From an uncultured bacterium (GTDB lineage Bacteria; Myxococcota_A; UBA9042; PHBI01): a stretch of DNA of 64,000 nucleotides. Below, piece after piece: positions 1 through 20,720 of this stretch. The translations under genes and the position numbers were made by a program. The notes under the pieces were generated by a model that had not been told where the DNA came from, did no database searches, and saw only the letters and a list, made by a program, of their open reading frames with translations. How positions within the stretch are numbered: position 1 is the stretch's first letter; every line of letters starts with the position of its first letter. Location of the stretch: the NCBI GenBank assembly GCA_938040325.1, contig CALHXW010000314.1, forward strand, positions 9,154 through 73,153. The letters are read 5' to 3'.

Positions 1-113
1 GTCCGCACATCGCAAGCCCCACAGTCTGGGCCGCGGTCACACTCGCCGCCCTCTCCGCACCAGCATTCGGTCTCATTCGCGTCGCAAACGATCGAGACCC
101 GCAGGCACAGGAG
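1..113 (-). CDS. Partial Cys-rich ORF running off the left window edge, in the same frame as the 114..668 ORF but separated from it by TAG
   Basis: Hand translation of the reverse strand gives LLCLRVSIVCDANETECWCGEGGECDRGPDCGACDVR with no stop. Hand-counted GC3 is about 76% over 37 codons. No start codon is evident. Confidence 0.3.
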
Positions 114-668
114 CTAAGCATCGTCACAAACGCAGCCGCGGAACGCCCGCCCCATCGCGCGTTCGCGCCCCGCTTCAACCTTGGCTATCCTCCCGTTGAA
201 TACGATCTTCCACGTCTTGGGTTCGTTGCGGCCGGCTGGGACACTGCTGAAGGCCACCAAGAACGCGTACTGCCAGAGGTCCGATTCCAGGGGATTGGCT
301 GCTATGCATTCGGTCCCTTTGAGCTGTTTCGGTTGCCTGATGTGAACACTCTGCTCGACCGGCTCGCACAGATGCCGCCAGCTGACCTTGCAGCGTTCTG
401 CAAGGAAATCTGGGATGCACCTGAGGCGGCGATTCGACGCATGGGTGGCGTTCCACCTGCGCCAGGCCCAAGACCAGAATGCGCGGCGCGACCCGGTGAG
501 ATGTTCGAGCACTGGGGCGACGTTATGGTCGACCGCCAACAGCTCATCCACGTCTACTTCAGCCAATCTCGGATCCCCATTGGCGTCTGGCGCCAAGCGA
601 GTCCGTAGCGCCCGGCAATACCGCGCGCCGCCTTGGCCATCGGGCGCAACAGTGGTAGGACAAACCAT
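114..668 (-). CDS. Hypothetical protein (184-aa ORF, extent uncertain)
   Basis: Hand-counted GC3 is ~73-77% in this frame. The C-terminal half (GTECIAANPLESDLWQYAFLVAFSSVPAGRNEPKTWKIVFNGRIAKVEAG...) looks protein-like and the N-terminal half is W/R-rich. A competing + strand ORF at 333..608 cannot be excluded. Confidence 0.4.
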   Translation of the reverse strand: MVCPTTVAPDGQGGARYCRALRTRLAPDANGDPRLAEVDVDELLAVDHNVAPVLEHLTGSRRAFWSWAWRRWNATHASNRRLRCIPDFLAERCKVSWRHLCEPVEQSVHIRQPKQLKGTECIAANPLESDLWQYAFLVAFSSVPAGRNEPKTWKIVFNGRIAKVEAGRERAMGRAFRGCVCDDA

Positions 669-880: not shown

Positions 881-1759
881 TTGTCCGCCAGAACGCCTGA
901 CACTGTGGATGCGCTCTCCACCAACACGCGCCCGACTGGCATCCCCATGCCGTGGATGACCGCACTTCGATCACTGCGAGTGCACCAATGGTGGTATTTC
1001 GCAACGTTGCCGCTGGGGGCGCTCGCGTTTGCGGTGCCAACCTGGGGCGACGTTTTCCTGGGTGTGTGCTGCGCGTCTGCGTGCCTTGCCGCTGCCTTTG
1101 GCCTCAATGCGATCACCGACCGCGCTGGCGATCGTTGCGCGTGGAAGAACCCCCTCGTCGGCCGTGGCGAAGGCGCGGGCCGCGTTCTCGGTTTAACTGC
1201 CGGATGCGGCGCCGTCGCTCTCTTGACCGCTTCGTGGGTTGGGCCGACGGCCCTCCTTGCCGCCGGGCTTTCAGTCCTCGCTGGACTCGTCTACAGCGTC
1301 GGCCCAAGATGGAAGGCAAGGCCTGGAATCGGAACGCTCTGCAATGGCGTCATCTTTACGCCGCTTCTTTTCGTTGGAACCTCAGCAGTAGTTGATACCG
1401 AAGTGGCGCTTGCCCTCACCATCGCACTGATGACGCTGGTCACTCAGAACCAACTCCTCCATGAAGCGGCAGACATGGACGAGGACCACCGTTCCGGCAC
1501 GAGGACGACAGTCGTTGTGATCGGCGCGGGGCACGTCAAGCGCGTCGGGTTGGCGTTGGGAGCGGTTGGCGCAGCAACAACGCTCGGGTTCGCGGGTTTG
1601 TCGCCGCTGACGTTCACGGCCTCGATCGGCATGATGTGTGGAGGCATCTTGCCTTTTATAGTGCAATCAACTGAGTGGAGCCGGCTACGCCGGCAACACC
1701 GATGGCTTGCTGCAGCGGGTGGAGGCACGATGTTTTTTGCCGCGCTGCTGCTTCAGTGA
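881..1759 (+). CDS. UbiA-superfamily prenyltransferase, integral membrane
   Basis: The ORF begins with TTG at 881, and ATG candidates lie at 947 and 956. It has multiple hydrophobic segments. The first Asp-rich motif is LNAITDRAGD (NxxxDxxxD) and the second is EAADMDEDHRSGTRT (DxxxD..G..T), as in DGGGP/chlorophyll/heme-O synthase type UbiA enzymes. Confidence 0.8.
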   Translation: MSARTPDTVDALSTNTRPTGIPMPWMTALRSLRVHQWWYFATLPLGALAFAVPTWGDVFLGVCCASACLAAAFGLNAITDRAGDRCAWKNPLVGRGEGAGRVLGLTAGCGAVALLTASWVGPTALLAAGLSVLAGLVYSVGPRWKARPGIGTLCNGVIFTPLLFVGTSAVVDTEVALALTIALMTLVTQNQLLHEAADMDEDHRSGTRTTVVVIGAGHVKRVGLALGAVGAATTLGFAGLSPLTFTASIGMMCGGILPFIVQSTEWSRLRRQHRWLAAAGGGTMFFAALLLQ

Positions 1760-1767
1760 GGCAAACG

Positions 1768-2811
1768 ATGCGCAGGATGAAACGTTCTGCAGTGCGGCGA
1801 GCGCTGGGCTTCGCCTATGCGAAAGCCAGCGGCGGGTCAATGCCCGTGTCAATTACGTTTATCACGACAGATCGGTGCAACTTCGACTGCAGCTACTGCC
1901 AGATACCCCATGCACCGACACCCGAAATGTCGACGGATGACTTCAAGCGCGCTATCTATGAATTTTGTCGCCATGGCCTGACGCGAGCGAGCTTCAGTGG
2001 CGGCGAAGTGATGTTAAGGCGCGACACTGTTGAGCTTGTTACGTATTCCAAGTCCCTCGGCTTGTTCACGTCGCTAAACTCCAATGGTTGGTCGACAGGC
2101 CGCCACCTTGACGAGCTCGCTGGTGTTCTCGACATGCTTGTCGTGTCGCTTGATGGTGACCGTGAGGCCCATGATGCGGTTTGCCGCCGACCGGGCTCTT
2201 ATGACCGTGTCCTTGACCTCCTATCGGACGCGAGGGACCACGGTATCTCAACTGCCACCATTTCCGTGATCGGGCCATGGAACCTCCACCTTTTGGATGA
2301 CCTGATGGCAACTGCGAGTCGACTGGGGGCATGGGCGTATTTCCAACCCGCTCAGGCCGACTGCTACGATCAGTCGGCTGGACTCACCGGCGGACTTGGC
2401 GCCAGCGAAATCCATGCCCTGGCAAACGCGCTTGAGCGAGGACTAGCGCGAAATGAGCCGATTGCCGCGTCAACCGGCTACCTCGCACGCTTGAAGCAGG
2501 CGCCAAAGTTCACGAGCTGCGCGAAGTGTGCAGCTGGTCGGTTCTTTGCCTCGGTGCTCCCGGATGGTCGTGTGGTGCCGTGCCATTTAACCTCAGAACG
2601 ACACCATTACCCCAGCGGTCTCGATGTTGGTTTCGTGAAGGCGTTCAACGCGCTACCTCGACCGAGTGGTGACGGTTGCGCGATCAGTCCGTACCAGGAG
2701 AGCGACCTGATTTTCTCCTTGGACCGCAACGCAATTCAAGCCGCGCTTCGCCGCTCCATCCCCTCATCTGCAAGCGCTTATCGCGTGATGAAGTCTGCAA
2801 TCTTGCGCTGA
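1768..2811 (+). CDS. Radical SAM enzyme with twitch/SPASM-like C-terminal Cys domain (paralog 1)
   Basis: ATG at 1768 lies 8 nt after the UbiA stop; the track start at 1675 would overlap UbiA. Motifs: TTDRCNFDCSYC (CxxxCxxC), GGEVMLRRD, and C-terminal CAAGRFFASVLPDGRVVPC (C-x12-G-x4-C). Confidence 0.9.
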   Translation: MRRMKRSAVRRALGFAYAKASGGSMPVSITFITTDRCNFDCSYCQIPHAPTPEMSTDDFKRAIYEFCRHGLTRASFSGGEVMLRRDTVELVTYSKSLGLFTSLNSNGWSTGRHLDELAGVLDMLVVSLDGDREAHDAVCRRPGSYDRVLDLLSDARDHGISTATISVIGPWNLHLLDDLMATASRLGAWAYFQPAQADCYDQSAGLTGGLGASEIHALANALERGLARNEPIAASTGYLARLKQAPKFTSCAKCAAGRFFASVLPDGRVVPCHLTSERHHYPSGLDVGFVKAFNALPRPSGDGCAISPYQESDLIFSLDRNAIQAALRRSIPSSASAYRVMKSAILR

Positions 2812-3869
2812 GCCTTCACCAACGTGAGGTTGCCTGAGCACGCCTGCTCCCAACACATGCAGCCGTATTCTGCTGACTGCATGCGCTTGCGGGTCGCCTG
2901 CGTCGCCCGATGCGCCCACAGCTCTCGAATCGACAACTTGGTAACGTTGCCAACGCGCGAGTCTTCGCGTCCATAACAGAGCTTTACATCCCCGTTAGGC
3001 AAAATCGTCATCGACGTCGCCGGAACCAAGAGACAGCGGAACCCGATGTCTTTGTAGAGTGCATCAGGCTCGAAGACATACCGCGAGGCCATATCCAAAT
3101 AGGGCGATCTGAGCCACGGATGTGCCTTTTGAAGGTCAGCGAGGCTGCGCTCAAGGGCCAGCCTGTCTTCCGGACGAAACATCACATCATGATCGCGAAC
3201 CGAGTGAATGCCGTTGTCCTGAACAATCTGTAAGAGAATCCCGTCGACCTTTTCTTGCCAATAATCCACGTAGGAAATGAGATGTCTGAAGTTGCCTCGG
3301 TGGATCGTGCAGCGGACCTGAATCTGCGGACGCTTGTTTCGCCGTTGCCGTCGCAACGTAGACGCTGCCGCCTCGACCTGGTGAAAGAGCCCGCTTAGAC
3401 CACGAAACCGGTCATGCTCGTCGGAACGATGGCTATCGACACTAAACGTGACGGTGTCGACACCAGTCTCCACCAGCCATCCGAGGTGACTTTCGATGTT
3501 ACGCCCGCTGGTCCCAAGGCTGACGTAAACGCCCCGCGCTTTTAAGACTGCCGCAAGGTCGCCAAGCTCGTCGACAAGGGTTGGCTCTCCGCCGATAAGC
3601 GAGACCCCCCACACGCCAGCGTCGGCAATGGCATGGGCGAGCGCGACCCGCTGTTTCCGATTGAGCTCAGCCACAGGCCGCCCCATATCGCAATGCCGAC
3701 AACGCAGAGGACAGCGTTCAGTCAATGCCCATGTGACGAATGTCGGCGCCGTGGGCTTGGTACCAGGGAACTGCACACCACTCAGGTTCGCCAGGAGGCT
3801 TGGTGCAGCGCGTGCTAAGTCTCCGAGGATGACTTGCCCGCCAGCGAACCGTGGACGAATTGTTTTCAC
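2778..3869 (-). CDS. Radical SAM enzyme with twitch/SPASM-like domain (paralog 2)
   Basis: Motifs: LTERCPLRCRHC (CxxxCxxC), GGEPTLVDE, CLLVPATSMTILPNGDVKLC (C-x13-G-x4-C) and CMCWEQAC. The probable GTG start at 3869 overlaps the upstream TGA (GTGA at 3866-3869). The track start at 4016 would overlap the aminotransferase by 150 nt. Confidence 0.9.
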   Translation of the reverse strand: MKTIRPRFAGGQVILGDLARAAPSLLANLSGVQFPGTKPTAPTFVTWALTERCPLRCRHCDMGRPVAELNRKQRVALAHAIADAGVWGVSLIGGEPTLVDELGDLAAVLKARGVYVSLGTSGRNIESHLGWLVETGVDTVTFSVDSHRSDEHDRFRGLSGLFHQVEAAASTLRRQRRNKRPQIQVRCTIHRGNFRHLISYVDYWQEKVDGILLQIVQDNGIHSVRDHDVMFRPEDRLALERSLADLQKAHPWLRSPYLDMASRYVFEPDALYKDIGFRCLLVPATSMTILPNGDVKLCYGREDSRVGNVTKLSIRELWAHRATQATRKRMQSAEYGCMCWEQACSGNLTLVKAQRKIADFITR

Positions 3870-5191
3870 GCCGCTTCTGCCCCTGTAGCCAAAAAGTCTT
3901 GGTGGGCCTCGACATAACGGGCCATCGCACCGATCTCTGCAGGCGTCAGGTTCGGATGCATCGGAAGAAACAGCATCTTGTTGGTGTATTGACGGGCGTT
4001 TGGCGTGTCTCGCCAAAAGGACGCGAACGCTCGCTCAGCGGTCGCACAAATAAGATTCGTCGAGGTGGTGTCGATCCCGTCCCTATGGAGCGCCGCTTTG
4101 AGTTGGTCCGGTTGATGAGTAAAGAGAGGCAGCCGCCACCATGTGCTGACCGCCTTGCGGGGGACGATAGGCAGCGCGTTTCGCACAGCCGGACTCGATG
4201 CCCGATAGAATGTGTCGACAAGTTGAGCCCGCGTCGCGTTGTCATGCTCCAGATGCATCAATGCTCTCAGAGCCATCAGCGCTTGCGCATCGCTGAACCG
4301 ACGAAACAGGTACGCAGGCAGTGCCCGACGAACCGCCCGGGGACGGCGACGCCACGGCACCAGGTTCCCTCGCTGGAACTCCCTAACGGCGTTCGGAAAG
4401 TACTGCTCCGCGCGTCCTACCGCGGCATGCATTGAACGCGTGTAGGTTCTTTTCGACGAGGCGGCATGCAGTGCAAGATCGCGAACAAACAATCCCGCGA
4501 GCTGGCGATGACTTACTGGCCGCAACTGACTGTTTCGACGCCGAAGGTACCTGGCTAACTCAGGATCGTCAGTGAGCGTCAAGCCGCCAATGAACGAACT
4601 CATCGGTTTCAGCGTGGTGAGGCTGAAGAAACCTGCTGCACCGAACGTACCTGCGTACCGCCCATTGAGTGAGGCCCCCATCGCCTGAGACGCATCCTCT
4701 AGCACGACCAGCGAGCGACGTTCAGCGATTGCCAAGATCGATGGCATGTCTGAGAGCAAGCCACAGAGATGGGTCACAAGGATCGCACAGGTCCGCCGAG
4801 TCACGGCGTTTTCCAAGCACTCCACATCCACACTGCAAGTGCGAGCGCCGAGGTCGACGAAACGTGGCACTAACCCGTGCTCCAAGATGACGTTGACAAC
4901 GTCGGCAATCGTCACAGGCGACAAAATCACCTCTGAGCCAGGCCTGAACCGATAATGCTCGAGGAGCATGCTGAGCGCGACTCGTGCATGAGGAAGCGCA
5001 ATGACGTTTCCTGCGCCGAACGTAGCCGCGCAGGCTTGTTCGAACTTAGCGACTTGCTCACCTTCCCGCGCGCGATGACCCACCAAGGTCTCGACGAGGT
5101 CCTGCGCTGTCTTCACCGGTTCGAAGTACAGCTGGCCGCGTGGCAAAGGACGTCTGCGTACCACGTGACCTCCCCTAGCGCCGCGGTTCAA
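3866..5191 (-). CDS. DegT/DnrJ/EryC1/StrS-family PLP-dependent aminotransferase
   Basis: Family-typical strings include ALPHARVALSMLLE, GSEVILSPVTIADVVN, LVVLEDASQAMGA and FFSLTTLKPMS (candidate PLP lysine). The TTG start at 5191 overlaps the upstream stop (TTGA at 5188-5191). Confidence 0.85.
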   Translation of the reverse strand: MNRGARGGHVVRRRPLPRGQLYFEPVKTAQDLVETLVGHRAREGEQVAKFEQACAATFGAGNVIALPHARVALSMLLEHYRFRPGSEVILSPVTIADVVNVILEHGLVPRFVDLGARTCSVDVECLENAVTRRTCAILVTHLCGLLSDMPSILAIAERRSLVVLEDASQAMGASLNGRYAGTFGAAGFFSLTTLKPMSSFIGGLTLTDDPELARYLRRRNSQLRPVSHRQLAGLFVRDLALHAASSKRTYTRSMHAAVGRAEQYFPNAVREFQRGNLVPWRRRPRAVRRALPAYLFRRFSDAQALMALRALMHLEHDNATRAQLVDTFYRASSPAVRNALPIVPRKAVSTWWRLPLFTHQPDQLKAALHRDGIDTTSTNLICATAERAFASFWRDTPNARQYTNKMLFLPMHPNLTPAEIGAMARYVEAHQDFLATGAEAA

Positions 5192-6552
5192 CCCTCAACC
5201 GTCACACGCCCATCGCCCTTGAGCAGCACGCCAGCCGGCAGCCGGACTGGCTTGGCCGGACGACCGAGCTTCTTTTCGCGTTCCGCCCGCTTGAGGGGCC
5301 GGTCAATGACGTTGCGATGACATGCCATCTGAACTTTGCCATCGACGAGGTAGTACCGTGAGCAGCGGGCGGCGTCTTGAACATCAATGCTCTGTGGCTC
5401 GCGAAACGTCTCGATAGAGATCAGCAGCGACCTCTCGCTCCACGACGCGGCTTCCGCTCGGCCACCACGAGATGCCATCTTCATGAAAGCACGCAAGTTT
5501 CTTGGGTTCTTCAAGAAGCCGGACACTCGCGTCGCCGGATGAAAGCTCTTCGAGTCTCCAAGAAGGGGCAGCGGCAGAAAGCAGCGACGCGTCGCAAAGT
5601 CCGGGTCATTCGTTAGCCGGTGAATCGCATGCATCGCCGCAAAGAACATCACCCAATCGCGGTACTTGATTCGACCACTGGTCTGCTCATCGATGGCGGC
5701 AATCATTTCGATTTCATCGAGCAGATTGTCGTCGGTGGTCAAGAGCCCGCGACCCAAGCGACGAGAAGGCATCAACGAAACATGACGAACACCCGGCGTG
5801 TCGAAGCCCATACGGATCAACTGCCCCATGTCGGTCATGTTAAAGTTCGAGTCCACCATACAAGCCAAGTCGATATTCATACCGACTCTCACGAGGTTAT
5901 CGATGGCCTGCTGTCGAATCTCGCTTGTATTCTTCACACCGCGAAGCGCGTAGAGCGACTCGTCATCCATTGTATCGGTCTGCAGCAGCACCCAGCGGCA
6001 GCCGCTGTTGTAGAGCATCTTGACGTAGTCGAAATCCTTGAGCTTGATGCCGTTGCTCAGGAGCTTCACGTCGTAGCCTAAACCCGTCAGTCTTGAGATC
6101 CACTTTGGCAAGTCAGACAAAAGGGTGGGCTCGCCCCCTGTCAGGTAGAGAACGGGCTTGTACGGAAGGATGGCTTTGAGCTGCTCAATCGTTTCGTCCA
6201 ACGATGGCATCTTGCCGCTCACCATGCCTTTTGCATCGATGAGGCAGTTCGGACAGCGCATGTTGCAGCTCTCCGTGACATCGATGAAGAGCCCACGCAG
6301 GTGCTTTGCGTGGGCGATGTCGTGCTCCAAAATCGGTGGTGGCAATGGTTCGAGCATCGACTCCATCAAGCGAAAATGCTTGGGATGTTTGCTCTGCTTG
6401 GCGTCGTGTTGACCGTGAACTGGGCACTGTCGCCGAAGCCAAATGGCGCCGGAGTGCTCGACGATCTGGGCGGGCACGAGCTGGGCGCAGTCTTCGCACC
6501 AACCTGTTGTGTCGGTGATCGACTTCGAAAGAAGAGTTCGTAGCAGTCCCAT
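5188..6552 (-). CDS. Radical SAM enzyme with N-terminal CxxC...CPxHG zinc-ribbon (Tes / MJ0619-like architecture)
   Basis: ATG at 6552 is preceded by AGGAGG 5 nt upstream. Motifs: WCEDCAQLV...RQCPVHG zinc ribbon, DVTESCNMRCPNC (CxxxCxxC) and LTGGEPTLL. About 454 aa. Confidence 0.85.
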   Translation of the reverse strand: MGLLRTLLSKSITDTTGWCEDCAQLVPAQIVEHSGAIWLRRQCPVHGQHDAKQSKHPKHFRLMESMLEPLPPPILEHDIAHAKHLRGLFIDVTESCNMRCPNCLIDAKGMVSGKMPSLDETIEQLKAILPYKPVLYLTGGEPTLLSDLPKWISRLTGLGYDVKLLSNGIKLKDFDYVKMLYNSGCRWVLLQTDTMDDESLYALRGVKNTSEIRQQAIDNLVRVGMNIDLACMVDSNFNMTDMGQLIRMGFDTPGVRHVSLMPSRRLGRGLLTTDDNLLDEIEMIAAIDEQTSGRIKYRDWVMFFAAMHAIHRLTNDPDFATRRCFLPLPLLGDSKSFHPATRVSGFLKNPRNLRAFMKMASRGGRAEAASWSERSLLISIETFREPQSIDVQDAARCSRYYLVDGKVQMACHRNVIDRPLKRAEREKKLGRPAKPVRLPAGVLLKGDGRVTVEG

Positions 6553-6717
6553 GCGTCCTCCTATGGCGACGTTAACGAGGGCCGAAGCGGATGTCCAGCC
6601 CGACCAAGTCGACGACAAGGGGCCCCTCGGGCCAACGACACGACCCATGCCTCTCGGACCGGAACCCCAAACTCGCGAGCGTCGTGATGGGTTGCCCGCA
6701 GGAGTTTCGACTGCCGT

Positions 6718-9579
6718 CTACCCTGTTAACCGCCGATGCCTCCACCGGATGAACCGTTCTGCAATCGACTGAGCGGGCGAGAGTGGCCTGACCAAGTCGA
6801 ACCTGTGCCTGTCGGGGTGGGTCAGATCGTCAAGCATCGCAATCGGCTTGCCGTCTTTCATCACGGCCCCGTCGATTCGAACGGCGAGCATCAACGTCGG
6901 TGCGAGATTCACGCTGCCTGTCACTGCCGCGTCGAGCTCTGCCAGACCTGTCGCAAGCCTCTGAAGGCCAGCCTTTGTCCACTGCCCTACGATACGCAGC
7001 AACAGGTCGGTCGGCGGGCCTGAGGGCTGACCAAACTCAGTCTGGGTCTCTCGCAGCGAGGCCTCAAGAGTCGCCTCCGTTAGAGTCGCCTCGAACGCTT
7101 CGCGTGACGCATGCAGAAGCCGCACACCGCCGTTGCTCGCTTGTTGCCGGAACACTGTGGTGCTCGCGCCGACCGTTAGCGCGAACGGTGCGTTCACTCT
7201 GATCTGCAGTTCGTTGGCCAAGCTACACTCCGCGAATGCGACCGCGTCGGCTTGTTGCGCAGACGTCAGGCCTTCATCGAGGACGAGTGCGAACGTGGAC
7301 GGCCGAAGAGATTCTCGGTATGCAGACGCCCAAAGAGTCGGCTGACCCAGCAATTCCACCGCGGCATCCGTGAGAACCTTGGCCCCGCGCACGCCACCCG
7401 GGCCTAGCCGAGCACCGGGTACCACGCCAGCTTTCGCCAACTCCTGGAAGATGAGGCGCCGTGGCGCATCGTCACAGAGCCGCACAAGTCGACGTCCGCG
7501 AGCACGCCCAGAGGGGGAGACCTCGACGGCAAGCCTCGCGCGGAACAACTCTCCGAGCCGGGTGATGCTTGCAGCGTAGCGCCCGTCGTGGGTGAAGAAC
7601 GGCTTGCTGACCGCAGCATCGACGTACGCGTCGGCCGGGATATCTCCCGCAACGAATGGATAGTCGAACTCGGAGTAGCCTTCGATGCGAGCGATTCGCC
7701 GCACGTCGAGTTGTGCGGCACGGCCGTTCCTCAAATGGCGTCGATAACTCGCCGACGGAACGATCGACACAATCCTAGGGGTGACTGGGTACTTCACATG
7801 GAAATGAATCGGGTAGCGAAGCTTCAACGACGCGACCTTGGAGATGCCGGCGATGAGCTCCTCAGCGGTCGTTTGGACGTTGGATAGGATAAAGTATGCA
7901 TCCAAGTGGAGCCCGCGCTGCGCCATAGCCTCCATCACCGCCTCGATGTGGGCGACCTTGTAGCCTTTGGCGTGTCTGGTCAGCTCAACATCCGTGAAGC
8001 TTTCAACCCCCATCTGAAGGTGCGCGCTCCAGTGCCTTTCAACGTAGTCCTCAATGTACTCTCGGTCAGTGACGGGCCGACCAACGTCCACGAAGGCGTC
8101 CGGTGAGATGGCGTCCAGCAGCTCGTTGTCCGGCTCCGGCCGTGGCGACTTGCCAGCCTTCAGGCATAGGTCGCCGATCGCCACCTGGCACGACGCCAGT
8201 CGGAACCTCGTTCGACGCAAAGCCCGAAAGAAGTTGATCGCGCGCTGACGATCGCAAGCAAAGTCGTCATCGGAGATATGGACGCGGTAAACCTTCGCCG
8301 GGATCTCATCACCAAAGATCTCGACGAAACGTTGGTGGTAGCGCTCCAAGAGCTCAAAAATGTTGTCCGCACTCCGCGCTTGGTACGTCATTTGGCCGAT
8401 GATGGTGCAGAAGCTGCACTTGTGTACGCAGCCGCGGCTTGTTGCGATCTCGATGCCGTGGACGAGGTGACGCGCCTCTAAGTGTCGGAGTTCAAGGGCC
8501 ACCCGATCAAGAGACTCGACCTGCACGCCATGACTAGAGACCGCACTCAGAAGCCTGCCGCCCGCTCGGTCGAGCGCGATGACGCCACGCATGGCCAGGA
8601 CGCTGGCGCGCTGCGCAGGCGAGAGCGGAGTGTCAATGGAGGCGTCGGGCCCCAACAGGCGGCAAAGCTCGGGCACAAAATACTCGCCCGCTCCGCGACA
8701 GACGAAGCTGACGCCTGGCAAGTGTGCGGCCACGTGTTCGGGCGTCAGCGTCGGCATCACGCCACCGACAGCGATGTGGGCGCGACAACCAAGCCTTCGC
8801 AGGTGACAAATGAGTGCCGCCACGCGGTCGAAGTAGGCCTCTAGGAGCGTGATGCATACAAGGCCAACCGGCCCCCCCGCGAGCGCCCCTGGCAACTGCT
8901 CGAGTCCGATGAGTTGCTCTTCTTCGTCGATGCTTTGGACCGACCGAAACTGCTCGTGAATCGTCATCTTCACACGTGCGAAGACGACCTCGGTGGAAAG
9001 CTCCTCCAGCGAGCTGACCATGTGGAGCACGCCTTGGCTGAGCTCTTGGTCGTTGTGATCAATCTCGGTGTTCATCAACGACTCGAAGAAAAGCGCACGC
9101 TTGACGGGGGCACACGGCAGCTCTTGAGACATCTCTGCGTCATGGCCGGCTGGCTGCAGACCTCTGGGCGGCAGTCGCTTCAACAGTTCACGTGCGTCGA
9201 CTTCGATCGTGTGTCGGGAACTGAGGCTCGCGACCGCTTCCCTGTCGAGGAACACCTCGACAGCTCTCAGACCTGCTTGCGCGTGCGGTTGACCGAGTTG
9301 GGGCTGGAGGTGAACTCGCACGACGCCATCACGCTGCGCAGCGGCTGTCCCGAATGCCGCCGCTACCCGAAGACTCGCTGCAACGTCCTCGGATGTCGCT
9401 AGCTTGTGCACAACCTCGACTCTGCCAGCATTTCCACACGGTCGTTTCGTCAACCAACGACCGTCTTTGGCTTGGTGCGAACGGACGCCTGCGGGCGGAG
9501 CATCCGGCTCGATCGCATAGGTGAAACCCGTGCGCAACGGCCGGTCGGGACCCGAAACGTCAGTCATAAAGCCACGCAA
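6718..9579 (-). CDS. B12-binding-domain radical SAM enzyme (class B-like) with ~150-aa N-terminal and ~450-aa C-terminal extensions
   Basis: A B12-binding-like Rossmann segment (GLVCITLLEAYFDRVAALICHLRRLGCRAHIAVGGVMPT) precedes IATSRGCVHKCSFCTI (CxxxCxxC). The start is uncertain (9579, or the internal ATG at 9132). Confidence 0.85.
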   Translation of the reverse strand: MRGFMTDVSGPDRPLRTGFTYAIEPDAPPAGVRSHQAKDGRWLTKRPCGNAGRVEVVHKLATSEDVAASLRVAAAFGTAAAQRDGVVRVHLQPQLGQPHAQAGLRAVEVFLDREAVASLSSRHTIEVDARELLKRLPPRGLQPAGHDAEMSQELPCAPVKRALFFESLMNTEIDHNDQELSQGVLHMVSSLEELSTEVVFARVKMTIHEQFRSVQSIDEEEQLIGLEQLPGALAGGPVGLVCITLLEAYFDRVAALICHLRRLGCRAHIAVGGVMPTLTPEHVAAHLPGVSFVCRGAGEYFVPELCRLLGPDASIDTPLSPAQRASVLAMRGVIALDRAGGRLLSAVSSHGVQVESLDRVALELRHLEARHLVHGIEIATSRGCVHKCSFCTIIGQMTYQARSADNIFELLERYHQRFVEIFGDEIPAKVYRVHISDDDFACDRQRAINFFRALRRTRFRLASCQVAIGDLCLKAGKSPRPEPDNELLDAISPDAFVDVGRPVTDREYIEDYVERHWSAHLQMGVESFTDVELTRHAKGYKVAHIEAVMEAMAQRGLHLDAYFILSNVQTTAEELIAGISKVASLKLRYPIHFHVKYPVTPRIVSIVPSASYRRHLRNGRAAQLDVRRIARIEGYSEFDYPFVAGDIPADAYVDAAVSKPFFTHDGRYAASITRLGELFRARLAVEVSPSGRARGRRLVRLCDDAPRRLIFQELAKAGVVPGARLGPGGVRGAKVLTDAAVELLGQPTLWASAYRESLRPSTFALVLDEGLTSAQQADAVAFAECSLANELQIRVNAPFALTVGASTTVFRQQASNGGVRLLHASREAFEATLTEATLEASLRETQTEFGQPSGPPTDLLLRIVGQWTKAGLQRLATGLAELDAAVTGSVNLAPTLMLAVRIDGAVMKDGKPIAMLDDLTHPDRHRFDLVRPLSPAQSIAERFIRWRHRRLTG

Positions 9580-9870
9580 AAACGCGAACCAAGCGACGCG
9601 CTCGTCCTGTCAGTGCACGGCTCGGGTCGCTTCTCAAAAGGCTTGCAACACCCGACGCGCGACCGTCACGGCGACGACGCCGAACAATGAAGCAATTTTC
9701 GTGGACGGTCCTCATACGTGGTCGCTAGTGTAGCAGCAGCCGGAGAAATGCGAAGCGTGACGCCAATACATCACTCCTCTGCGCTCGACCCCCAGTGACG
9801 GAGCAGCGCTTGTTTTGGGCCTAGTTCGTCATGCCCTACTGGACGCCTGCGCACCTCCGTCGCTGGCCCG

Positions 9871-10632
9871 ATGAGCACGCCAAACGCGCCCCTTCTGGAA
9901 CGCCTGATGATGGCGACCTTCGGCCGCATCATGCCGCCGCAGGTCCGCGCCGTGCTGCCCACAGATCTGACACCGCGGGACGCCCTCGACTTTAAGGTCA
10001 ACCCGATCCTCCCGGTAGGTTCTGAACGGCCGCCACGAGTCGCCATCAGTGACGGCAGAGAGCCAGCTCAGTGGGCGCGACGAGTTGAGAGCACCTACCC
10101 TAGCCCGCAGGTCGCAAGGTTCATCGCGACCGTGCCTGGCTGTCGGCGAATGGTCGATACGAACGGCGAGAGCGCCGTGCTGTACCTCGACGATCTACAA
10201 GAACATGTCTCGCGCAAAGGACCTGCTGGACGCCCCCTCATGGCGCTGACGCTCCAGGTCCCGCAAGGCAACCGCAGCTTGATGACTCTTGAGCCCAACC
10301 CTCCCCGTCAGCTCTTCTCCTGCCGTATCGCGGAGCAACTTGACGCCCTCCTCTCGCACGGCGCTACCGGACGGTGGGCAGTCCGATATCGCCGACGTCA
10401 ACCGATCAGCGTCCTCTGGATTACCGAGGCCAGATGGCGCGATACATATGATGAAACGACCGCCGTTTTGGAAGGTGCTCTTGGCCTTCCCAGTGCATGG
10501 AAGAGACTTGGCGAAGCAGCCGTAGAGTTGTCGACCTACCCCGATGCCGTGGAGTTGCTCGGACCAAGGGGGCTGGACGTCACGGTTGGATGGCGACTGC
10601 AGAAAGCAACGACCGCTGACCCAAGCCCCTGA
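9871..10632 (+). CDS. Hypothetical protein, 253 aa
   Basis: Long ORF in an otherwise gene-free stretch, divergent from the B12-rSAM gene. I recognise no motif. Confidence 0.5.
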   Translation: MSTPNAPLLERLMMATFGRIMPPQVRAVLPTDLTPRDALDFKVNPILPVGSERPPRVAISDGREPAQWARRVESTYPSPQVARFIATVPGCRRMVDTNGESAVLYLDDLQEHVSRKGPAGRPLMALTLQVPQGNRSLMTLEPNPPRQLFSCRIAEQLDALLSHGATGRWAVRYRRRQPISVLWITEARWRDTYDETTAVLEGALGLPSAWKRLGEAAVELSTYPDAVELLGPRGLDVTVGWRLQKATTADPSP

Positions 10633-10684
10633 AGCCCGCACACACGGAGCGCAGCGCTGACGACACGCCGCAAACGCTTGGCCA

Positions 10685-11776
10685 ATGATCGTTGGACGAA
10701 AGGCTGGTACGTTGCTTGTTCTTCGCAGCGTCCGCGAGGTTACTATCGACATCGACCACGAACTCATCGGCCTGCAACTTGGCCTTCGAGATGGCATCAA
10801 ACACGAACGCATCCCGCGCGGCCAACTGCCTGTATGCGAGCGACTATTCGCTGACGCGGGATTCGTCGCCTACAGCGATCCACGCCTCCTCTATGAGGCC
10901 GGACATGCCGACATCCATAACTATGCAGGCCGAAGCCACGGCACGCTCTTCGTCGCACGCGACAGACGCACTGCTGAACGGCTCGCCGAGCTATCGATCG
11001 CCACAGAGCGCCGCGGCGGCGACAGCAAAGCCCGGGCCCAAGCCGAAGATGAGATCGGCGCCTTGTTGGGCTATCCAGCCTGTTGCCGGGCTGCCTTTCG
11101 TTCGCGTCAGAGTTCTGGTCGAGCGGCGCTCCACCTTGCTCCACTGCACCGAACTCGTGGCCCTCTCGACCAGCGACTCAATCGCTTTTCGCGATGGGCT
11201 GCACTGATCAGCCATATCCCCTGTCGCTTCGACTGCCCTGACAGCATCGCGCTAGCAGCTAGCATCGAAGCAGAGACGTCCATCCGGTATCCCGCCACCT
11301 CCGCATTCGCCCGTGAAATAAGGAGCTGTCCACTCCTCTACCTCGACGCCGACCAACTCGTGCTCGTGAGAGGTGAGTGGAGCGAGAACACACTCGTCAT
11401 CGACGACATCGTCCCGCCCGACCCTGAGCCAGGAAGAGACGCGACCATCGGACCTGCCGCGGAGCTGCGAGGCCACCTAGAGCCGGGGGCCGTCGTGCGT
11501 AGCGAACCAGCCAAGATCTTTGTCGACGTACGAGGTCGCCAGTTGTCGTCGACCGACATGTTTCCAAACACATGCTGGTGGGTCATGGATTGGACCGGAA
11601 CTCAGACTCCGACGGCTCCTGCCTCTACCATTCGTTGCGCCAACCGCGAGCTCACGAGTCAGCTTCGCGCGCAAGGGCTGTTGATCAACTTCGTTGACGG
11701 CCAACCCGCAAGCAACCGTGGCTTGCTCGATGCCGTGGAGCTAGTCTGGAGCGGCCGCGCTTCTGTCACTGTTTGA
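10685..11776 (+). CDS. Hypothetical Cys-motif protein, 363 aa
   Basis: Contains GALLGYPACCRAAF and ISHIPCRFDCPDS, two Cys pairs suggesting a metal site. It lies 52 nt after the previous ORF. I cannot assign a family with confidence. Confidence 0.55.
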   Translation: MIVGRKAGTLLVLRSVREVTIDIDHELIGLQLGLRDGIKHERIPRGQLPVCERLFADAGFVAYSDPRLLYEAGHADIHNYAGRSHGTLFVARDRRTAERLAELSIATERRGGDSKARAQAEDEIGALLGYPACCRAAFRSRQSSGRAALHLAPLHRTRGPLDQRLNRFSRWAALISHIPCRFDCPDSIALAASIEAETSIRYPATSAFAREIRSCPLLYLDADQLVLVRGEWSENTLVIDDIVPPDPEPGRDATIGPAAELRGHLEPGAVVRSEPAKIFVDVRGRQLSSTDMFPNTCWWVMDWTGTQTPTAPASTIRCANRELTSQLRAQGLLINFVDGQPASNRGLLDAVELVWSGRASVTV

Positions 11777-13222
11777 CCCTCTGAGGTCGATGAGTCGCGC
11801 CATGCTGGCCCGGACCTGAGGCCGCAGATCCGATGCGAGGTGGCTTGGGTCGAAGCGCTGAAAGGCCGGCAACCACTCGGGCCGCTCGTAGAAGTCAGCC
11901 ATAGCCGATGGCGAGAGCCCAGCGATGTCGGCGCAGCTGGCAACGATGCCGAGCTCGATGAACCGGTAGAAGTCCCACGGCACGCGGTCGAGCCCAGGCA
12001 CGCAGACCGTTGGGATGCCGTACTTCAGCAAGGTCAGGTGAGCACTTGTCCCGCCGCACACGACGAGATCGCACTGGGCTGCGTCCTCGACCAGCGTGCA
12101 GCTGGCATCGGAGAGCGTGATGTCGGGACCGCTCGGGAGCCGGGCGATGGCTGCGTGGTCTCGAACGGTGCGGTTGGGGTGCAGTCGAATCCGAATCGAC
12201 CTCGGCCCGAGCACCTTCCGAATGCTCCTGAGAGCCTCGGCAACCCCGTCCCAGTCGTTGACCAGGCTCAGAAAGATCCCCACCCGTAGCTCGGTCGCCG
12301 GTCTGCGCAAGGCGTCGACCGACATCGTCCGCGACACGCCCTCGGCACCTTTAAAGACGACCTCGCCGCTCATGCCCAGGCTGTTGCGGTAGACATCGTA
12401 GAGCGCAGGTCCATCGAGAAGGTTGAGCGCGAAGTCGGTGTGGGGCGGGTCGGCCGGGAGGTGGCCGTGGTTGATGTAGGCGACAGGCAAGCCCGCAATC
12501 TTCGCTGCCGCCCAGGCACCCATCGCACAAGGATTCGAGTCGCTCGAGACCACCAGCCCAGAGAGCTCGGATGCGGCGAGCTGTCGCCGAAAGCGTCCAT
12601 AGTAGCCGAGGGTCGCCGCGACGCGGCAGGCCACCAAGAAGCTCGTCTCCGGCGGGCTGACGGATGCGTGCAGGAGCTTGAGGCCGGAAGCGACGCGGGC
12701 AGGGTCTCGCAGCTCTGAGAGCAACGTGCCGACGCCAGCGGCGCGCTCGACCGCGCGTCCGCCGTGCTCAACGAACGCGAACGTCATCTCCGAGCAGACG
12801 CCGTCGAGCCACTCGAACTGCCGCCGCTCGTTGGCGTACTCGCCGACGGCCAGGACATCGGCCGTCCACGAGCGCCCGCGCGCGCTGAGGTACGCCTTGA
12901 GCCCGTAGAGCGCCACAAAGGCCGTTGCTGCGGGTCGGTGGGCTAGCCGCTTGTGGAGCCGCTCGGCGAGACGAATGAGCCTCCGGCGGCCCCGCAGCTC
13001 CGCGAAGACCGACCGGCGAAACGGCTGGGAGTCCTTGAAGACGACCGTGGCAATCGCCTGTTTGAGTGGGTCGCTGCCCGCGCTGGATGCTGCCCCTGCT
13101 TGTGCCTGTCTACCCACCATGGGCACCAGCTTGTCCGCTGCGACCGACGATGCAAAGCACGGATATAGACAGCCCACAAAGCACGCTACCGGCGCGCCAT
13201 GAACGGAAGCGCGCCAAAGCAC
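11741..13222 (-). CDS. Hypothetical protein, possible GT-B-like / capsule-type (KpsC/KpsS-like) glycosyltransferase
   Basis: Two Rossmann-like halves (SDSNPCAMGAWAAAKIAGLPVAYINHGH and LVVCGGTSAHLTLLKYGIPTVCVPG) are present. It is the last gene of the minus-strand operon. The functional call is tentative and the start is uncertain (13222 or ATG 13120). Confidence 0.45.
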   Translation of the reverse strand: MLWRASVHGAPVACFVGCLYPCFASSVAADKLVPMVGRQAQAGAASSAGSDPLKQAIATVVFKDSQPFRRSVFAELRGRRRLIRLAERLHKRLAHRPAATAFVALYGLKAYLSARGRSWTADVLAVGEYANERRQFEWLDGVCSEMTFAFVEHGGRAVERAAGVGTLLSELRDPARVASGLKLLHASVSPPETSFLVACRVAATLGYYGRFRRQLAASELSGLVVSSDSNPCAMGAWAAAKIAGLPVAYINHGHLPADPPHTDFALNLLDGPALYDVYRNSLGMSGEVVFKGAEGVSRTMSVDALRRPATELRVGIFLSLVNDWDGVAEALRSIRKVLGPRSIRIRLHPNRTVRDHAAIARLPSGPDITLSDASCTLVEDAAQCDLVVCGGTSAHLTLLKYGIPTVCVPGLDRVPWDFYRFIELGIVASCADIAGLSPSAMADFYERPEWLPAFQRFDPSHLASDLRPQVRASMARLIDLRGSNSDRSAAAPD

Positions 13223-16771: not shown

Positions 16772-17501
16772 CGACGGGCTCCGCGGCTGAGCGACACACC
16801 CGCAGCGCGCTGAGCAACATGACGCCGTAGACCGCTCCCTGATAGAAGCTTCGGATGTCAGGTCGCGGGGTGCCGTCGGGGTAGAAGTAGTCGTTGCTGC
16901 CGCTGCCCCGTGGGAGGACGATGTCGCTGAGCTGACTCAGCACCACGACCGCGCAAAAGAGCAGCGTGTCGTGACGCAAGCGCGTGACAGGCGCCAGCCA
17001 GCGCTCGCTCGCCGGCCACAAACGCATCATTGCCGGCAGACCGCACCAGATGGCGACCGCCGGTACCGCGAGCGTCAGCGACAGGTCGCTGTACCAGGCC
17101 GAGCCGGTGCGGGGCGCCGTGTGTAGCGAGTCACCGCCGACCCAGCCCTGGAGGAGGCTGTGGCCGAGATCGACGCCGTAGACCGCCCCCCAGTGAATCT
17201 CCTCAAGCAGGAGCAGCAGGGCATAGAGCGTGAGCAACACGCTGAGGCCGATGGCGAGCCACGATGGACCGCGCCCGATGCGCCGCCGACGCCCGAGCAG
17301 CCGCATGCTCGCGACGCCCCAAGCACCGGCGGCCGCAAGGAGCACAACGTGAGACGCGTGCTCGATCGGCCCCTCCGTCATCGACAAGAGCAAAAGCGGC
17401 TCGGGCCACACGTACACGAGCAGCCACCACGTCAGCGACACGCCGACGACGATGGCCAGCGGCGTGCTGCGGATCCCAGACGGCGTCGGGTTGTCGGTCA
17501 A
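16764..17501 (-). CDS. Polytopic membrane protein, unknown function
   Basis: About 6-7 hydrophobic segments. A candidate TTG start at 17501 forms a TTGA overlap with the upstream rSAM stop (17498-17501). The track start is 17579. Confidence 0.55.
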   Translation of the reverse strand: MTDNPTPSGIRSTPLAIVVGVSLTWWLLVYVWPEPLLLLSMTEGPIEHASHVVLLAAAGAWGVASMRLLGRRRRIGRGPSWLAIGLSVLLTLYALLLLLEEIHWGAVYGVDLGHSLLQGWVGGDSLHTAPRTGSAWYSDLSLTLAVPAVAIWCGLPAMMRLWPASERWLAPVTRLRHDTLLFCAVVVLSQLSDIVLPRGSGSNDYFYPDGTPRPDIRSFYQGAVYGVMLLSALRVCRSAAEPVDG

Positions 17502-20710: not shown

Positions 20711-20720
20711 GTGTAGCGCT

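Follow-up and report, generated by a model that had tools for sequence, protein, structure and literature searches.

A rare radical-SAM, aminotransferase and UbiA gene module from uncultured Myxococcota-type bacteria

Genes at the locus

The window, that is the whole stretch of DNA analyzed here, comprises 64,000 nucleotides from an uncultured bacterium. An initial annotation had described four minus-strand genes in its left part as a single operon coding for a B12-type radical-SAM (rSAM) protein, a Zn-ribbon rSAM, a DegT aminotransferase and a twitch rSAM. The four co-directional open reading frames are present (6718..9579, 953 aa; 5188..6648; 3866..5191; and 2778..4016), and the genes and their domain calls are borne out by Pfam, SPASM and Foldseek comparisons.

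The gene at 5188..6552 (minus strand) encodes a 454-aa rubredoxin/Zn-ribbon rSAM of the Tes/GDGT-MAS superfamily (Zn_ribbon_HMPTM, 44.7 bits, plus Radical_SAM), most likely starting from the ATG at 6552, which follows an AGGAGG. It carries a ribbon motif (C19X2C22X20C43X2H46) and a radical-SAM motif (C96X3C100X2C103), and has 21 close homologues. Its closest solved relative is GDGT-MAS (MJ0619, 7TOL), a lipid-binding enzyme with a CX2C-X20-CX2H ribbon (PMC9433317). The profile of the ribbon rSAM matches 7TOL with an E-value of 8.1e-52, the alignment spanning both ribbon and radical-SAM core and reaching into the C-terminal cluster region, where two Cys residues align; together with the identical spacing of the N-terminal rubredoxin-like ribbon, this upholds the previously suggested kinship with the Tes/MJ0619 group. 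Unlike GDGT-MAS, the ribbon rSAM lacks the N-terminal auxiliary CX3CX2C+His cluster motif, is ∼70 residues shorter, and sits with UbiA, DegT and twitch-rSAM genes, which, to our knowledge, Tes loci do not carry. Identity to Tes-like proteins is ∼26%, and NCBIfam scores are 127 bits for TrsS (cut-off 490) and 122 bits for Tes (cut-off 450). An exhaustive family search revealed two relatives fused to GT2 domains (P0245 and P0259), whose best matches are the polyprenyl-phosphate glycosyltransferases ArnC and PpgS; both are distant family members (∼240 bits) outside the clade of the window protein. A third relative, P0249, is a B12-rSAM::ribbon-rSAM fusion.

The DegT/DnrJ/EryC1-family PLP aminotransferase (3866..5164, minus strand; Pfam DegT, 197.7 bits) counts 432 aa from GTG 5164. 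The longest open reading frame starts at TTG 5191; GTG 5164 comes 4 nt after the Shine-Dalgarno sequence AGGGGAGG, orthologue N-termini start 1-5 residues ahead of a conserved LPRGQLYF, and the gene caller also gives 432 aa, making GTG 5164 the more likely start. The junction between the ribbon-rSAM and aminotransferase genes is therefore likely a 23-nt spacer, not an overlap. Of the two 4-nt overlaps proposed to chain the last three genes, the GTGA at 3866-3869 is present, whereas the TTGA at 5188-5191 exists as letters but probably does not contain a real start. Genes overlapping in this way may be co-translated stoichiometrically, as had been suggested. Across 21 clade members, K186 (the catalytic Lys), D157, Q160 and S181 do not vary. 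The enzyme forms a small clade of its own with 28 close homologues, after which scores fall from 250 to 117 bits, and does not group with ordinary O-antigen aminotransferases. Its best NCBIfam matches are ArnB and PseC, and its best PDB match is the glutamine:scyllo-inosose transaminase 7B0D (E 3e-29).

The twitch-type rSAM (2778..3869, minus strand; 363 aa from GTG 3869; Radical_SAM 53 bits, SPASM 33 bits) has seven Cys residues invariant in the alignment, C53, C57 and C60 plus four near the C-terminus (C279-x18-C298 and C337-x-C339), which predict a single auxiliary site, ligated entirely by Cys and spaced Cx18C as in BtrN. Its orthologues in L005, L006, L007, L008, L020 and L022 are 37-54% identical. 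The DegT gene lies directly upstream of the twitch gene in six of the seven loci carrying both, with a 4-nt overlap in four.

On the opposite strand lies a UbiA-superfamily prenyltransferase gene (881..1759, plus strand; 292 aa; Pfam UbiA, 64.4 bits). UbiA enzymes are membrane prenyltransferases, and the NxxxDxxxD and DxxED catalytic motifs are kept in seven aligned orthologues. The sole PDB match is the archaeal AfUbiA (4TQ3, E 1.9e-13). Profile comparison gave no specific likeness to DPPR synthase, DGGGP synthase or MenA; DGGGP-synthase models are among the weak matches, and ChlG is a weak match of one orthologue. The ATG of a small rSAM ('rSAM5'; 1768..2811, plus strand; ∼347 aa; Radical_SAM 82 bits) is found 9 nt past the UbiA stop. 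This protein has CxxxCxxC and GGE motifs and a C-terminal Cys cluster (conserved C285, C303 and C335), and its gene converges on the twitch gene with a 34-nt overlap of the 3' ends.

The left edge of the window cuts a further plus-strand gene, leaving 201 codons and the stop at 606-608 (3..608) of a polytopic membrane protein. The C-terminus of a 609-aa membrane protein of L011 maps to positions 30-590 of the window (39% identity, E 2e-32 by tblastn). Relatives have 7-10 predicted TM segments. Module-flanking membrane proteins gave no PDB sequence match and, in Pfam, weak, sub-threshold matches to PMT_2 and DUF6057 alone, so that their assignment to the GT-C transferases is insecure.

Recurrence of a five-gene module

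Neighbourhood comparison revealed orthologues of these genes (35-79% identity) at ten other independent loci, in shuffled order. The conserved unit is a five-gene module comprising the ribbon rSAM, the DegT aminotransferase, the twitch rSAM, the UbiA prenyltransferase and the small rSAM, with all five found together in the window, L005, L006 and L007. The four-gene operon of the initial annotation does not stand, as it included the 953-aa B12-rSAM, of which none of the other module loci has an orthologue, and omitted the UbiA and small-rSAM genes, which belong to the core and, at 881-2811, converge on it. The module contains two welded pairs, UbiA with the small rSAM and DegT with the twitch rSAM, and the ribbon rSAM as a further enzyme. 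The small rSAM has orthologues in seven other loci (28-57% identity), always paired with UbiA, and the two genes adjoin at every locus that has both (the window, L005, L006, L007, L009, L011, L020 and L022). UbiA and the small rSAM are missing from L008, neither DegT nor the twitch rSAM was seen within reach in L009 and L011, and L020 and L022 have no ribbon-rSAM orthologue.

A B12-rSAM is a frequent neighbour of the module, and a polytopic membrane protein is the usual one (L005, L006, L007, L009, L011, L020 and L022). LPG_synthase_TM proteins are encoded at 13186-14211 of the window and, in L008, adjacent to the twitch rSAM, and a GT2 resembling AglJ/Dol-P-hexose-transferase lies beside the L022 cluster. 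The module is rare, so far seen only in uncultured Myxococcota-type MAGs, and uncharacterised, being assembled from enzyme kinds already known.

The 953-aa B12-rSAM

The gene at 6718..9579 (minus strand), separated from the ribbon rSAM by a 165-nt spacer (6553..6717) with no promoter-like or terminator-like site on the minus strand, encodes a multidomain B12-type rSAM. Its B12-binding (27.0 bits) and Radical_SAM (28.1 bits) matches both fall slightly below the Pfam cut-offs. Homologue alignment and a structure model (pLDDT 86.6) delimit a conserved N-terminal domain (residues 1-150), a class-B core (∼150-700), a helical linker (700-760) and a degenerate second rSAM domain (760-953). In the model, the central ∼550 residues adopt a predicted Rossmann-like B12 domain, an rSAM barrel and a C-terminal helical region, like OxsB, TsrM, AprD4, CysS and TokK (Foldseek E 1e-13 to 1e-9 for OxsB, TsrM, TokK and CysS, at 11-15% sequence identity). 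Unlike these enzymes, it has the additional N-terminal domain, for which there is no PDB fold match, and belongs to a family with a second rSAM domain, intact in most relatives but degenerate here.

Both extensions had been reported to lack a recognizable motif; the C-terminal region aligns with the intact second rSAM domain of relatives (hhalign 99%, E 2.5e-18), whose best matches are the PapB, HxsB, QhpD and SCIFF maturases. Sequence comparison thus identifies it as the remnant of a PapB/HxsB-like domain that lost its CxxxCxxC and is predicted to be catalytically dead. Both extensions are conserved coding sequence in homologues, which excludes mis-called overprinting; the 804-aa prediction from the gene caller misses part of the protein.

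The family is separate and widespread, with at least 191 proteins of ∼1000-1100 aa, mostly double radical-SAM enzymes, and occurs elsewhere without the module. As its members sit in peptide-maturase-like rSAM islands, where those of L003 and L019 adjoin small ORFs and genes resembling HxsD, the 953-aa protein may be unrelated to the module. By its sequence, the protein in the B12-rSAM slot of the window is of a different family from the usual module neighbours; the B12 half of P0249 is nearest to the ordinary-size B12-rSAMs adjoining the module in L007 and L009 (E 3e-56 to 6e-31). The GC3 of the 953-aa gene and the module genes is 0.64-0.71, that of genes further right 0.74-0.85.

A putative membrane-bound pathway

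Because no module enzyme attains a curated equivalog cut-off in NCBIfam, we infer all substrates named below. The product of the module is probably an isoprenoid-linked compound that bears an amine and is anchored in the membrane. We give slightly less than even odds to the module both assembling and modifying a polar head group that is isoprenoid-linked and membrane-anchored, the likeliest candidate being a sugar or cyclitol on a polyprenyl(-phosphate). More tentatively, the chemistry would be that of a lipid-linked pathway, with polyprenyl as the lipid, to an amino-sugar or amino-cyclitol. In such a pathway, UbiA would couple an isoprenoid with a head-group precursor, the twitch rSAM would oxidize a secondary alcohol, and DegT would transaminate the resulting ketone to an amine. 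At the membrane interface, the small and Tes-like rSAMs would introduce further radical modifications; methyl groups would come from a B12-rSAM, and the polytopic membrane protein would flip or transfer the finished amino head group.

A lipid-bound substrate is favoured by the lipid-binding nature of GDGT-MAS, the kept catalytic motifs of the membrane prenyltransferase UbiA, the polyprenyl-phosphate/Dol-P-type GT2 domains of P0245, P0259 and L022, the PMT_2/DUF6057-like proteins flanking the module at seven loci and at 3-608 of the window, and the LPG_synthase_TM proteins. Amination is favoured by the retention of Lys186, Asp157 and Gln160, the ArnB/PseC matches and the Cys-ligated auxiliary site of the twitch rSAM; the P0249 fusion and the module-like low GC3 of the 953-aa gene argue for a B12 partner. 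The case is weakened by the unspecific UbiA subfamily, the remoteness of the GT2 fusions, the incompleteness of several loci and the lack of specific BtrN similarity in the twitch rSAM; moreover, we know of no carrier-lipid sugar pathway that employs a Tes-like enzyme.

The pairing of DegT and twitch rSAM had been likened to BtrS and BtrN of butirosin biosynthesis, in which oxidation precedes transamination. Their adjacency is conserved, and oxidise-then-transaminate chemistry is reasonable given the kept catalytic Lys and a conserved neighbour with four invariant Cys and Cx18C, by its sequence an rSAM with a BtrN-like single, fully Cys-ligated cluster. The specific kinship fails: the twitch rSAM is longer than the 270-residue BtrN chain, and matches it at E 0.029 in the twitch region only. 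Extending the analogy to the four originally grouped genes, which would then yield a soluble natural product, an aminocyclitol or amino-sugar methylated by the B12 enzyme, seems unlikely. These genes are closely spaced and share a low GC3, DegT resembles a scyllo-inosose transaminase, and the wider region encodes GFO/IDH/MocA-type dehydrogenases, a type that in L020 is fused to a cluster rSAM. However, the 953-aa gene is not part of the module elsewhere, no sugar-nucleotide or cyclitol synthase (e.g. DOI-synthase-like) was seen in the module, and the conserved partners are UbiA and membrane proteins, not aminoglycoside genes, which argues for a membrane-bound product. Somewhat less probable is a bacterial Tes-type pathway, in which UbiA would supply a prenyl lipid or isoprenoid ether whose unactivated tail carbons the ribbon rSAM would, like Tes, couple or cyclise into a macrocyclic or membrane-spanning lipid, B12-rSAMs would methylate or cyclise tails (as Grs and Gmm), and DegT and the twitch rSAM would provide an amino head group. 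The GDGT-MAS alignment (E 8e-52), the archaeal relative of UbiA with its weak DGGGP-synthase matches, and the B12-rSAMs recurring beside or fused with the ribbon rSAM agree with it, as does the reported use of the same enzyme classes in archaeal lipid tailoring (PMC13459092). Against it speak the low Tes identity and HMM score, the missing [4Fe-4S]N motif of GDGT-MAS, GT2 fusions indicating sugar-linked substrates, and loci in which no glycerol-ether genes, those for G1P dehydrogenase and GGGP synthase included, were seen.

Peptide or tetrapyrrole substrates fit the module less well. A RiPP-like island, where rSAMs would modify a ribosomal peptide, DegT would add an amine and UbiA a prenyl group, is improbable: the maturase-like second domain and gene neighbours of the 953-aa family and the eight rSAM genes within 30 kb of the window point that way, but near the window genes the search found neither an HxsD or RRE-type domain nor a small ORF resembling a precursor, the module stands without such islands in L005-L008, and we know of no UbiA-type prenylation or DegT-type transamination of peptides. 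Tailoring of a tetrapyrrole or related cofactor, with UbiA in the role of chlorophyll or heme O synthase and side chains modified by rSAMs of NirJ/AhbD-like and HemN/ChuW-like type, is the most improbable. In NCBIfam, the NirJ, NirJ2, AhbC and AhbD models give 50-66 bits with the small and twitch rSAMs, scores that are generic to SPASM/twitch enzymes and far under the cut-offs; the HemN/ChuW-like rSAM at 14078-15997 (112-117 bits, NCBIfam) falls outside the stretch of low GC3 and does not recur with the module. ChlG is matched weakly, and we are aware of no tetrapyrrole-tailoring role for a sugar-type aminotransferase.

For the lipid-linked amino-sugar or amino-cyclitol pathway, the nearest known counterparts are the Arn (L-Ara4N) and mycobacterial DPA pathways, which provide carrier-lipid-linked sugar donors for GT-C transferases. 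These have no counterpart of the Tes-like enzyme, and their oxidation and tailoring steps are NAD- or FAD-dependent, whereas those of the module would be radical-SAM reactions; no ArnA, ArnC, ArnD or DprE orthologues accompany the module, and its UbiA is not specifically DPPR-synthase-like. Shared with them are an ArnB-like DegT-type aminotransferase, a UbiA-family enzyme (cf. DPPR synthase), polyprenyl-phosphate-type GT2 domains, either adjacent or as fusions with ribbon-rSAM relatives, polytopic membrane proteins weakly similar to PMT_2, and a flippase-like LPG_synthase_TM protein.

Gene organization and conservation of the module

The initial annotation described a minus-strand operon of four genes, encoding a 953-aa B12-type radical-SAM (rSAM) enzyme, a Zn-ribbon rSAM enzyme, a DegT aminotransferase and a twitch rSAM enzyme. 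All four ORFs are present and co-directional on the minus strand (6718..9579, 5188..6648, 3866..5191 and 2778..4016, respectively), and the proposed domain calls agree with Pfam: Zn_ribbon_HMPTM (44.7 bits) and Radical_SAM (61.9 bits) in the ribbon rSAM, DegT_DnrJ_EryC1 in the aminotransferase, Radical_SAM (53.3 bits) and SPASM (33.2 bits) in the twitch rSAM, and B12-binding (27.0 versus 32.1) and Radical_SAM (28.1 versus 29.5), both just below their gathering scores, in the 953-aa protein. Inspection of the junction sequences supports the proposed ribbon-rSAM start at ATG 6552, with AGGAGG 5 nt ahead, as well as the GTGA overlap of the twitch start GTG 3869 with the aminotransferase stop. The proposed TTGA overlap exists as letters, in that TTG 5191 overlaps the ribbon-rSAM stop, but GTG 5164, located 4 nt 3' of AGGGGAGG, is the likelier aminotransferase start. 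Given this context, the starts of the DegT orthologues (1-5 residues ahead of a conserved LPRGQLYF in 20 out of 20 aligned) and the public gene call of 432 aa for the window protein, the junction is most likely a 23-nt spacer rather than an overlap. The 953-aa gene is parted from the other three by a 165-nt gap. A promoter and terminator scan gave no signal above shuffled background and none in the spacer 6553-6717; neither a cobalamin riboswitch nor another RNA was found by an Rfam scan of window 1-20 kb, and a tRNA search found none.

Two plus-strand genes converge on these four, encoding a UbiA prenyltransferase (881..1759) and a small rSAM (about 1768..2811), the latter sharing a convergent 3'-end overlap of 34 nt with the twitch rSAM (window 2778-2811). 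From left to right, the order is membrane protein, UbiA and small rSAM, reading rightward, followed by twitch rSAM, DegT, ribbon rSAM and B12-rSAM, reading leftward.

Gene neighbourhoods were gathered for the orthologues of the ribbon rSAM and of the aminotransferase and compared by tblastn and ORF clustering. After merging of duplicates (L007=L012=L025 and L008=L023=L024), 11 independent loci were available. Ribbon rSAM, DegT and small rSAM each occur at 8 of these, the twitch rSAM at 7, and UbiA at 7 by ORF clustering, a weaker tblastn match adding locus L009. All five families are found together in the window, L005, L006 and L007, in varying order and orientation. The twitch rSAM lies directly downstream of DegT in six of seven loci, four of which (the window, L005, L007 and L022) show a called 4-nt overlap. 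Likewise, UbiA adjoins the small rSAM wherever both are present, overlapping it by 4 nt in L007, L011 and L022. On the other hand, tblastn of the neighbourhoods detects the 953-aa family at no other module locus, and the operon as first drawn has to be revised: UbiA and the small rSAM are the recurring partners instead.

The gene combination is rare and conserved. Its hosts are uncultured organisms, and a literature search found no paper describing it. Every module enzyme belongs to a known superfamily, yet none reaches a curated family cut-off.

In seven loci, the module is flanked by a polytopic membrane protein, 550-690 aa long, for which 7-10 TM segments are predicted. Of such a protein the window encodes the last 201 residues (3..608, plus strand), which are 39% identical to the counterpart in L011 (E 2e-32). 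No PDB sequence match was found for this family, and its Pfam matches, PMT_2 and DUF6057, are sub-threshold only, making a GT-C assignment a lead, not a finding.

The module enzymes and their relatives

In a word-indexed search, the ribbon rSAM has 21 close homologues (41-79% identity), the next matches falling to about 26%. An exhaustive profile search yields a wider family of 438 representatives (E ≤ 1e-30), about 45 of which are full-length with more than 200 bits. The protein had initially been associated with Tes, also known as GDGT-MAS or MJ0619 (PDB 7TOL), for which an earlier pterin-methylase assignment is considered incorrect (PMC9433317); the Pfam name Zn_ribbon_HMPTM (PF23545) reflects this superseded assignment. 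The crystal structure revealed a rubredoxin-like iron site in this lipid synthase (C9X2C12X20C33X2H36), one of four metal sites, the others being an N-terminal [4Fe-4S] cluster (ligands C73, C77, C80 and a His), the radical-SAM cluster and a C-terminal cluster (PMC9433317).

The association with Tes stands in part. Like Tes, the window protein has a ribbon of the same spacing (C19X2C22X20C43X2H46) that aligns to the 7TOL motif. Across the 21 homologues C43 never varies, and at least 90% have C19, C22 and H46. Moreover, the profile of the clade matches 7TOL with an E value of 8.1e-52. Unlike in Tes, however, the N-terminal [4Fe-4S] motif is missing: the 7TOL segment NGCPYDCGLCPNH lies opposite a gap in the clade profile, and the clade has no Cys between ribbon and radical-SAM motif. 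For the C-terminal cluster region, a second and weak alignment (i-E 0.046) places C397 and C411 opposite Cys of 7TOL 447-513, and C324 is also invariant. The protein scores 122.2 bits against a Tes cut-off of 450 (NF045702) and 127.4 bits against a TrsS cut-off of 490. Judged by these sequence features, the ribbon rSAM is a relative within the Tes superfamily, not a Tes. Since the GDGT-MAS ribbon is an iron site, iron may by analogy also be the metal bound by the "Zn ribbon" in the window. Two distant relatives (P0245 and P0259) are fused to an ArnC/PpgS-type polyprenyl-phosphate GT2; the contig retrieved for P0245 spans only 3.5 kb. Another member of the wider family, P0287, is fused to an nSTAND3 NTPase domain.

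The DegT protein scores 197.7 bits against PF01041 (gathering score 19.8). The catalytic Lys (K186), the PLP-binding Asp and Gln (D157, Q160) and S181 do not vary among 21 clade members, which makes the protein an aminotransferase and not a dehydratase. The clade counts 28 close homologues, at 38-47% identity and 250-373 bits, before scores drop to 117 bits. The best NCBIfam scores, for PseC (113.6 versus 423.5) and ArnB (107.1 versus 631), stay below cut-off, and no named equivalog among PseC, ArnB, WecE, DesI and others is reached. The protein does not group with ordinary O-antigen aminotransferases lacking an rSAM partner, the outcome that the initial annotation had named as refuting its proposal; it falls in a separate clade, and its orthologues keep their rSAM partners.

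In the twitch rSAM, the CX3CX2C motif (C53, C57, C60) as well as C279-x18-C298 and C337-x-C339 are invariant in 7 orthologues. As judged by motif, the protein resembles BtrN in combining CX3CX2C with one fully Cys-ligated auxiliary cluster. In contrast, its profile matches the BtrN structure (4M7T) over the twitch region only (E 0.029, 16 bits), and SkfB, BlsE and PqqE score far above BtrN; the BtrN precedent initially invoked thus finds no specific relationship in sequence. The conserved adjacency of the two genes would fit an oxidation, by the twitch rSAM, of an alcohol to the ketone used by DegT.

UbiA scores 64.4 bits against PF01040 (gathering score 34.2) and retains both Asp-rich motifs (N76xxxDxxxD and DxxED). 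Its sole PDB match is AfUbiA. Among the UbiA subfamilies compared (DPPR synthase, DGGGPS, MenA, heme O synthase and others), no NCBIfam cut-off is approached and none is favoured in 7 orthologues.

The 953-aa protein

At least 191 homologues of the 953-aa protein were found, in Myxococcota, Polyangiaceae, Sandaracinaceae and other MAGs; nearly all are 950-1110 aa long and 42-59% identical. The homologues P0002 and P0003 are surrounded by unrelated genes; P0045 and P0007 belong to large rSAM islands that also comprise HxsD-like genes, genes for TPR proteins and several rSAMs (470-625 aa). In these islands there are relatives of two window neighbours, a 253-aa gene and a HemN-like rSAM.

An alignment of 43 members defines the domain picture of the family. 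In the window protein, a Rossmann-like cobalamin domain is followed by an rSAM barrel with C384X3C388X2C391, and an AlphaFold model built with this alignment (pLDDT 86.6, pTM 0.87) matches OxsB, TsrM, AprD4, CysS, TokK and MgmA in Foldseek (E 1e-13 to 2e-9), with a probability of 1.00 for OxsB, TsrM, TokK and CysS. The modelled fold agrees with a class B rSAM architecture, and cobalamin use is predicted. To our knowledge, however, AprD4 functions without B12; since it is among the fold matches, the fold by itself does not prove cobalamin use.

The initial annotation had considered that the extensions of this protein might be mis-called overprinted sequence. The N-terminal extension is real: residues 21-100 show 93% occupancy across the 43 members, with Y21, E24, G40, R46, H48, G49 and R71 near-invariant, and the 804-aa version proposed by the gene caller is too short, cutting this domain. 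Modelled alone (pLDDT 83.9), the N-terminal 150 residues gave no PDB match by Foldseek (best E 0.027, TM 0.23-0.33). The C-terminal extension, initially described as free of recognizable motifs, is the remnant of a second rSAM domain. This domain is intact in 27 of the 43 members, with CELRCxYC (CxLRCxYC), GGE, SSNG and SLDG motifs; the cluster motif is missing in the remaining 16, the window protein and 15 others. The intact domain is most similar to peptide maturases, scoring 106 bits for PapB and 84 bits for HxsB. By hhalign, the remnant group matches the intact domains with 99% probability (E 2.5e-18, 246 columns). Recognition of the homology needed intermediates and profile-profile comparison, the window C-terminus alone giving no significant match to an HMM of the intact domains. 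The doubled size of the protein is accounted for by four parts, namely an N-terminal domain of unassigned fold, the class-B core, a second rSAM domain that is dead, and the helical linker between these two. As a family, these proteins (at least 191, of about 1000 aa) are double rSAM enzymes, a sizeable subset of which has a dead second domain. In annotation pipelines, the Zn_ribbon_HMPTM name, the double-rSAM family and the truncated 953-aa call all want correcting.

Next to the ribbon rSAM, L006, L007, L009 (with two copies) and L010 have B12-rSAMs of ordinary size (469-626 aa), which share 20-28% identity with one another and with the 953-aa protein. At 20-23% identity and E values of 1e-4 or worse, they were rejected as its orthologues. 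In P0249, a member of the wider ribbon-rSAM family found by the exhaustive profile search, a B12-rSAM is fused to a ribbon rSAM. Its B12 half is nearest to the neighbours in L007 and L009, at E 3e-56 to 6e-31, versus E 3e-4 for the 953-aa protein, and no B12-rSAM of this lineage was found in the window. GC3 is 0.64-0.71 across the eight genes from UbiA to a 363-aa gene (881-11776), the 953-aa gene included, and 0.74-0.85 for genes from 11741 rightward. The low-GC3 block looks distinct in composition and was possibly acquired as an island, the left edge of which lies beyond the window. The comparative sequence evidence lends no support to operon membership of the 953-aa gene; chances are roughly balanced that its product is a non-orthologous stand-in for the B12-rSAM of the module.

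Possible products and the wider window

Beyond the anatomy and linkage of the genes, which are observed directly, everything about the pathway, its substrates included, is what we infer. Seven pointers taken together suggest, tentatively and at less than even odds, a lipid-linked, amine-bearing head group as the likeliest product: UbiA is a membrane prenyltransferase with intact motifs, the ribbon rSAM is related to a lipid-binding rSAM, L022 carries an AglJ/Dol-P-hexose-transferase-like GT2, and to these are added the GT2 fusions P0245/P0259, the polytopic membrane proteins, the LPG_synthase_TM proteins and an aminotransferase of the sugar type. The logic would resemble that of the Arn and DPA carrier-lipid routes, with radical-SAM chemistry as driver. 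We know of no precedent for a Tes-like enzyme in such a pathway. We regard the soluble aminosugar or cyclitol product initially proposed as rather doubtful. A lipid formed by Tes-type (Csp3-Csp3) tail coupling is unlikely. The same low probability applies to a previously unknown class of bacterial isoprenoid lipid in uncultured Myxococcota, made by the Tes-related rSAM, UbiA, the twitch rSAMs and DegT, in which a polyprenyl chain would be radical-tailored (C-C-coupled, cyclised or methylated) and would bear an amino-sugar or amino-cyclitol head. Less probable than any of these is peptide or tetrapyrrole tailoring. A search near the B12-rSAM for a precursor-like small ORF gave nothing convincing.

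If the chemistry of the lipid-linked amine holds, the module would make, without need of oxygen, an envelope component that bears an amine and is anchored by an isoprenoid, and it would provide a first functional context for a bacterial branch of the Tes/GDGT-MAS superfamily. Lipid biomarker research has yet to settle what Tes homologues do in bacteria (PMC8941075). Were the radical-tailored isoprenoid reading true, archaeal-type radical lipid chemistry would reach into bacteria, with an amination wholly driven by radical-SAM enzymes and independent of oxygen. Interest in the locus is moderate now, and would be higher if such a lipid were the product.

Window 1-30400 contains eight rSAM genes within 30 kb, four of them in or near the module. 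The others are a HemN/ChuW-like rSAM (14078-15997), two divergent small-rSAM paralogues (17498-18838, minus; 18657-19715, plus) and a 437-aa rSAM (29036-30349, minus), orthologous (41-47% identity) to an rSAM of about 450 aa that adjoins DegT in both L021 and L022. The counterpart of this 437-aa rSAM in L020 is fused to a GFO/IDH/MocA dehydrogenase, and a free-standing GFO/IDH/MocA gene is found at 23174-24154 of the window. As far as gene content can indicate, the module may have further partners at least 20 kb away.

Nearer by, a 253-aa gene (9871-10632, plus) has 35-37% identity to an L019 gene beside a MauG-like peroxidase. A 363-aa gene (10685-11776, plus) shows a weak DUF483 match and an LGYPACC motif, its product sharing 34% identity over 134 aa with that of a 238-aa gene near the DegT orthologue of L021. 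No similarity was found between the 363-aa and 493-aa neighbours and the unknowns flanking the L003 homologue. An LPG_synthase_TM flippase-like protein (71 bits) is encoded at 13186-14211 (minus); in L008 an LPG_synthase_TM protein, 25% identical to the window copy over 112 aa, directly follows the twitch rSAM. An 893-aa protein (30430-33111, minus) combines a VanY D-Ala-D-Ala carboxypeptidase domain with six MopE-type metal-binding repeats, and MopE-repeat proteins also occur near L003 and L005. Finally, 19523-24154 encodes an NAD epimerase/dehydratase, a D-2-hydroxyacid dehydrogenase, an HpcH/HpaI aldolase and a GFO/IDH/MocA oxidoreductase, enzymes that might provide a sugar or cyclitol head group, or act on one.
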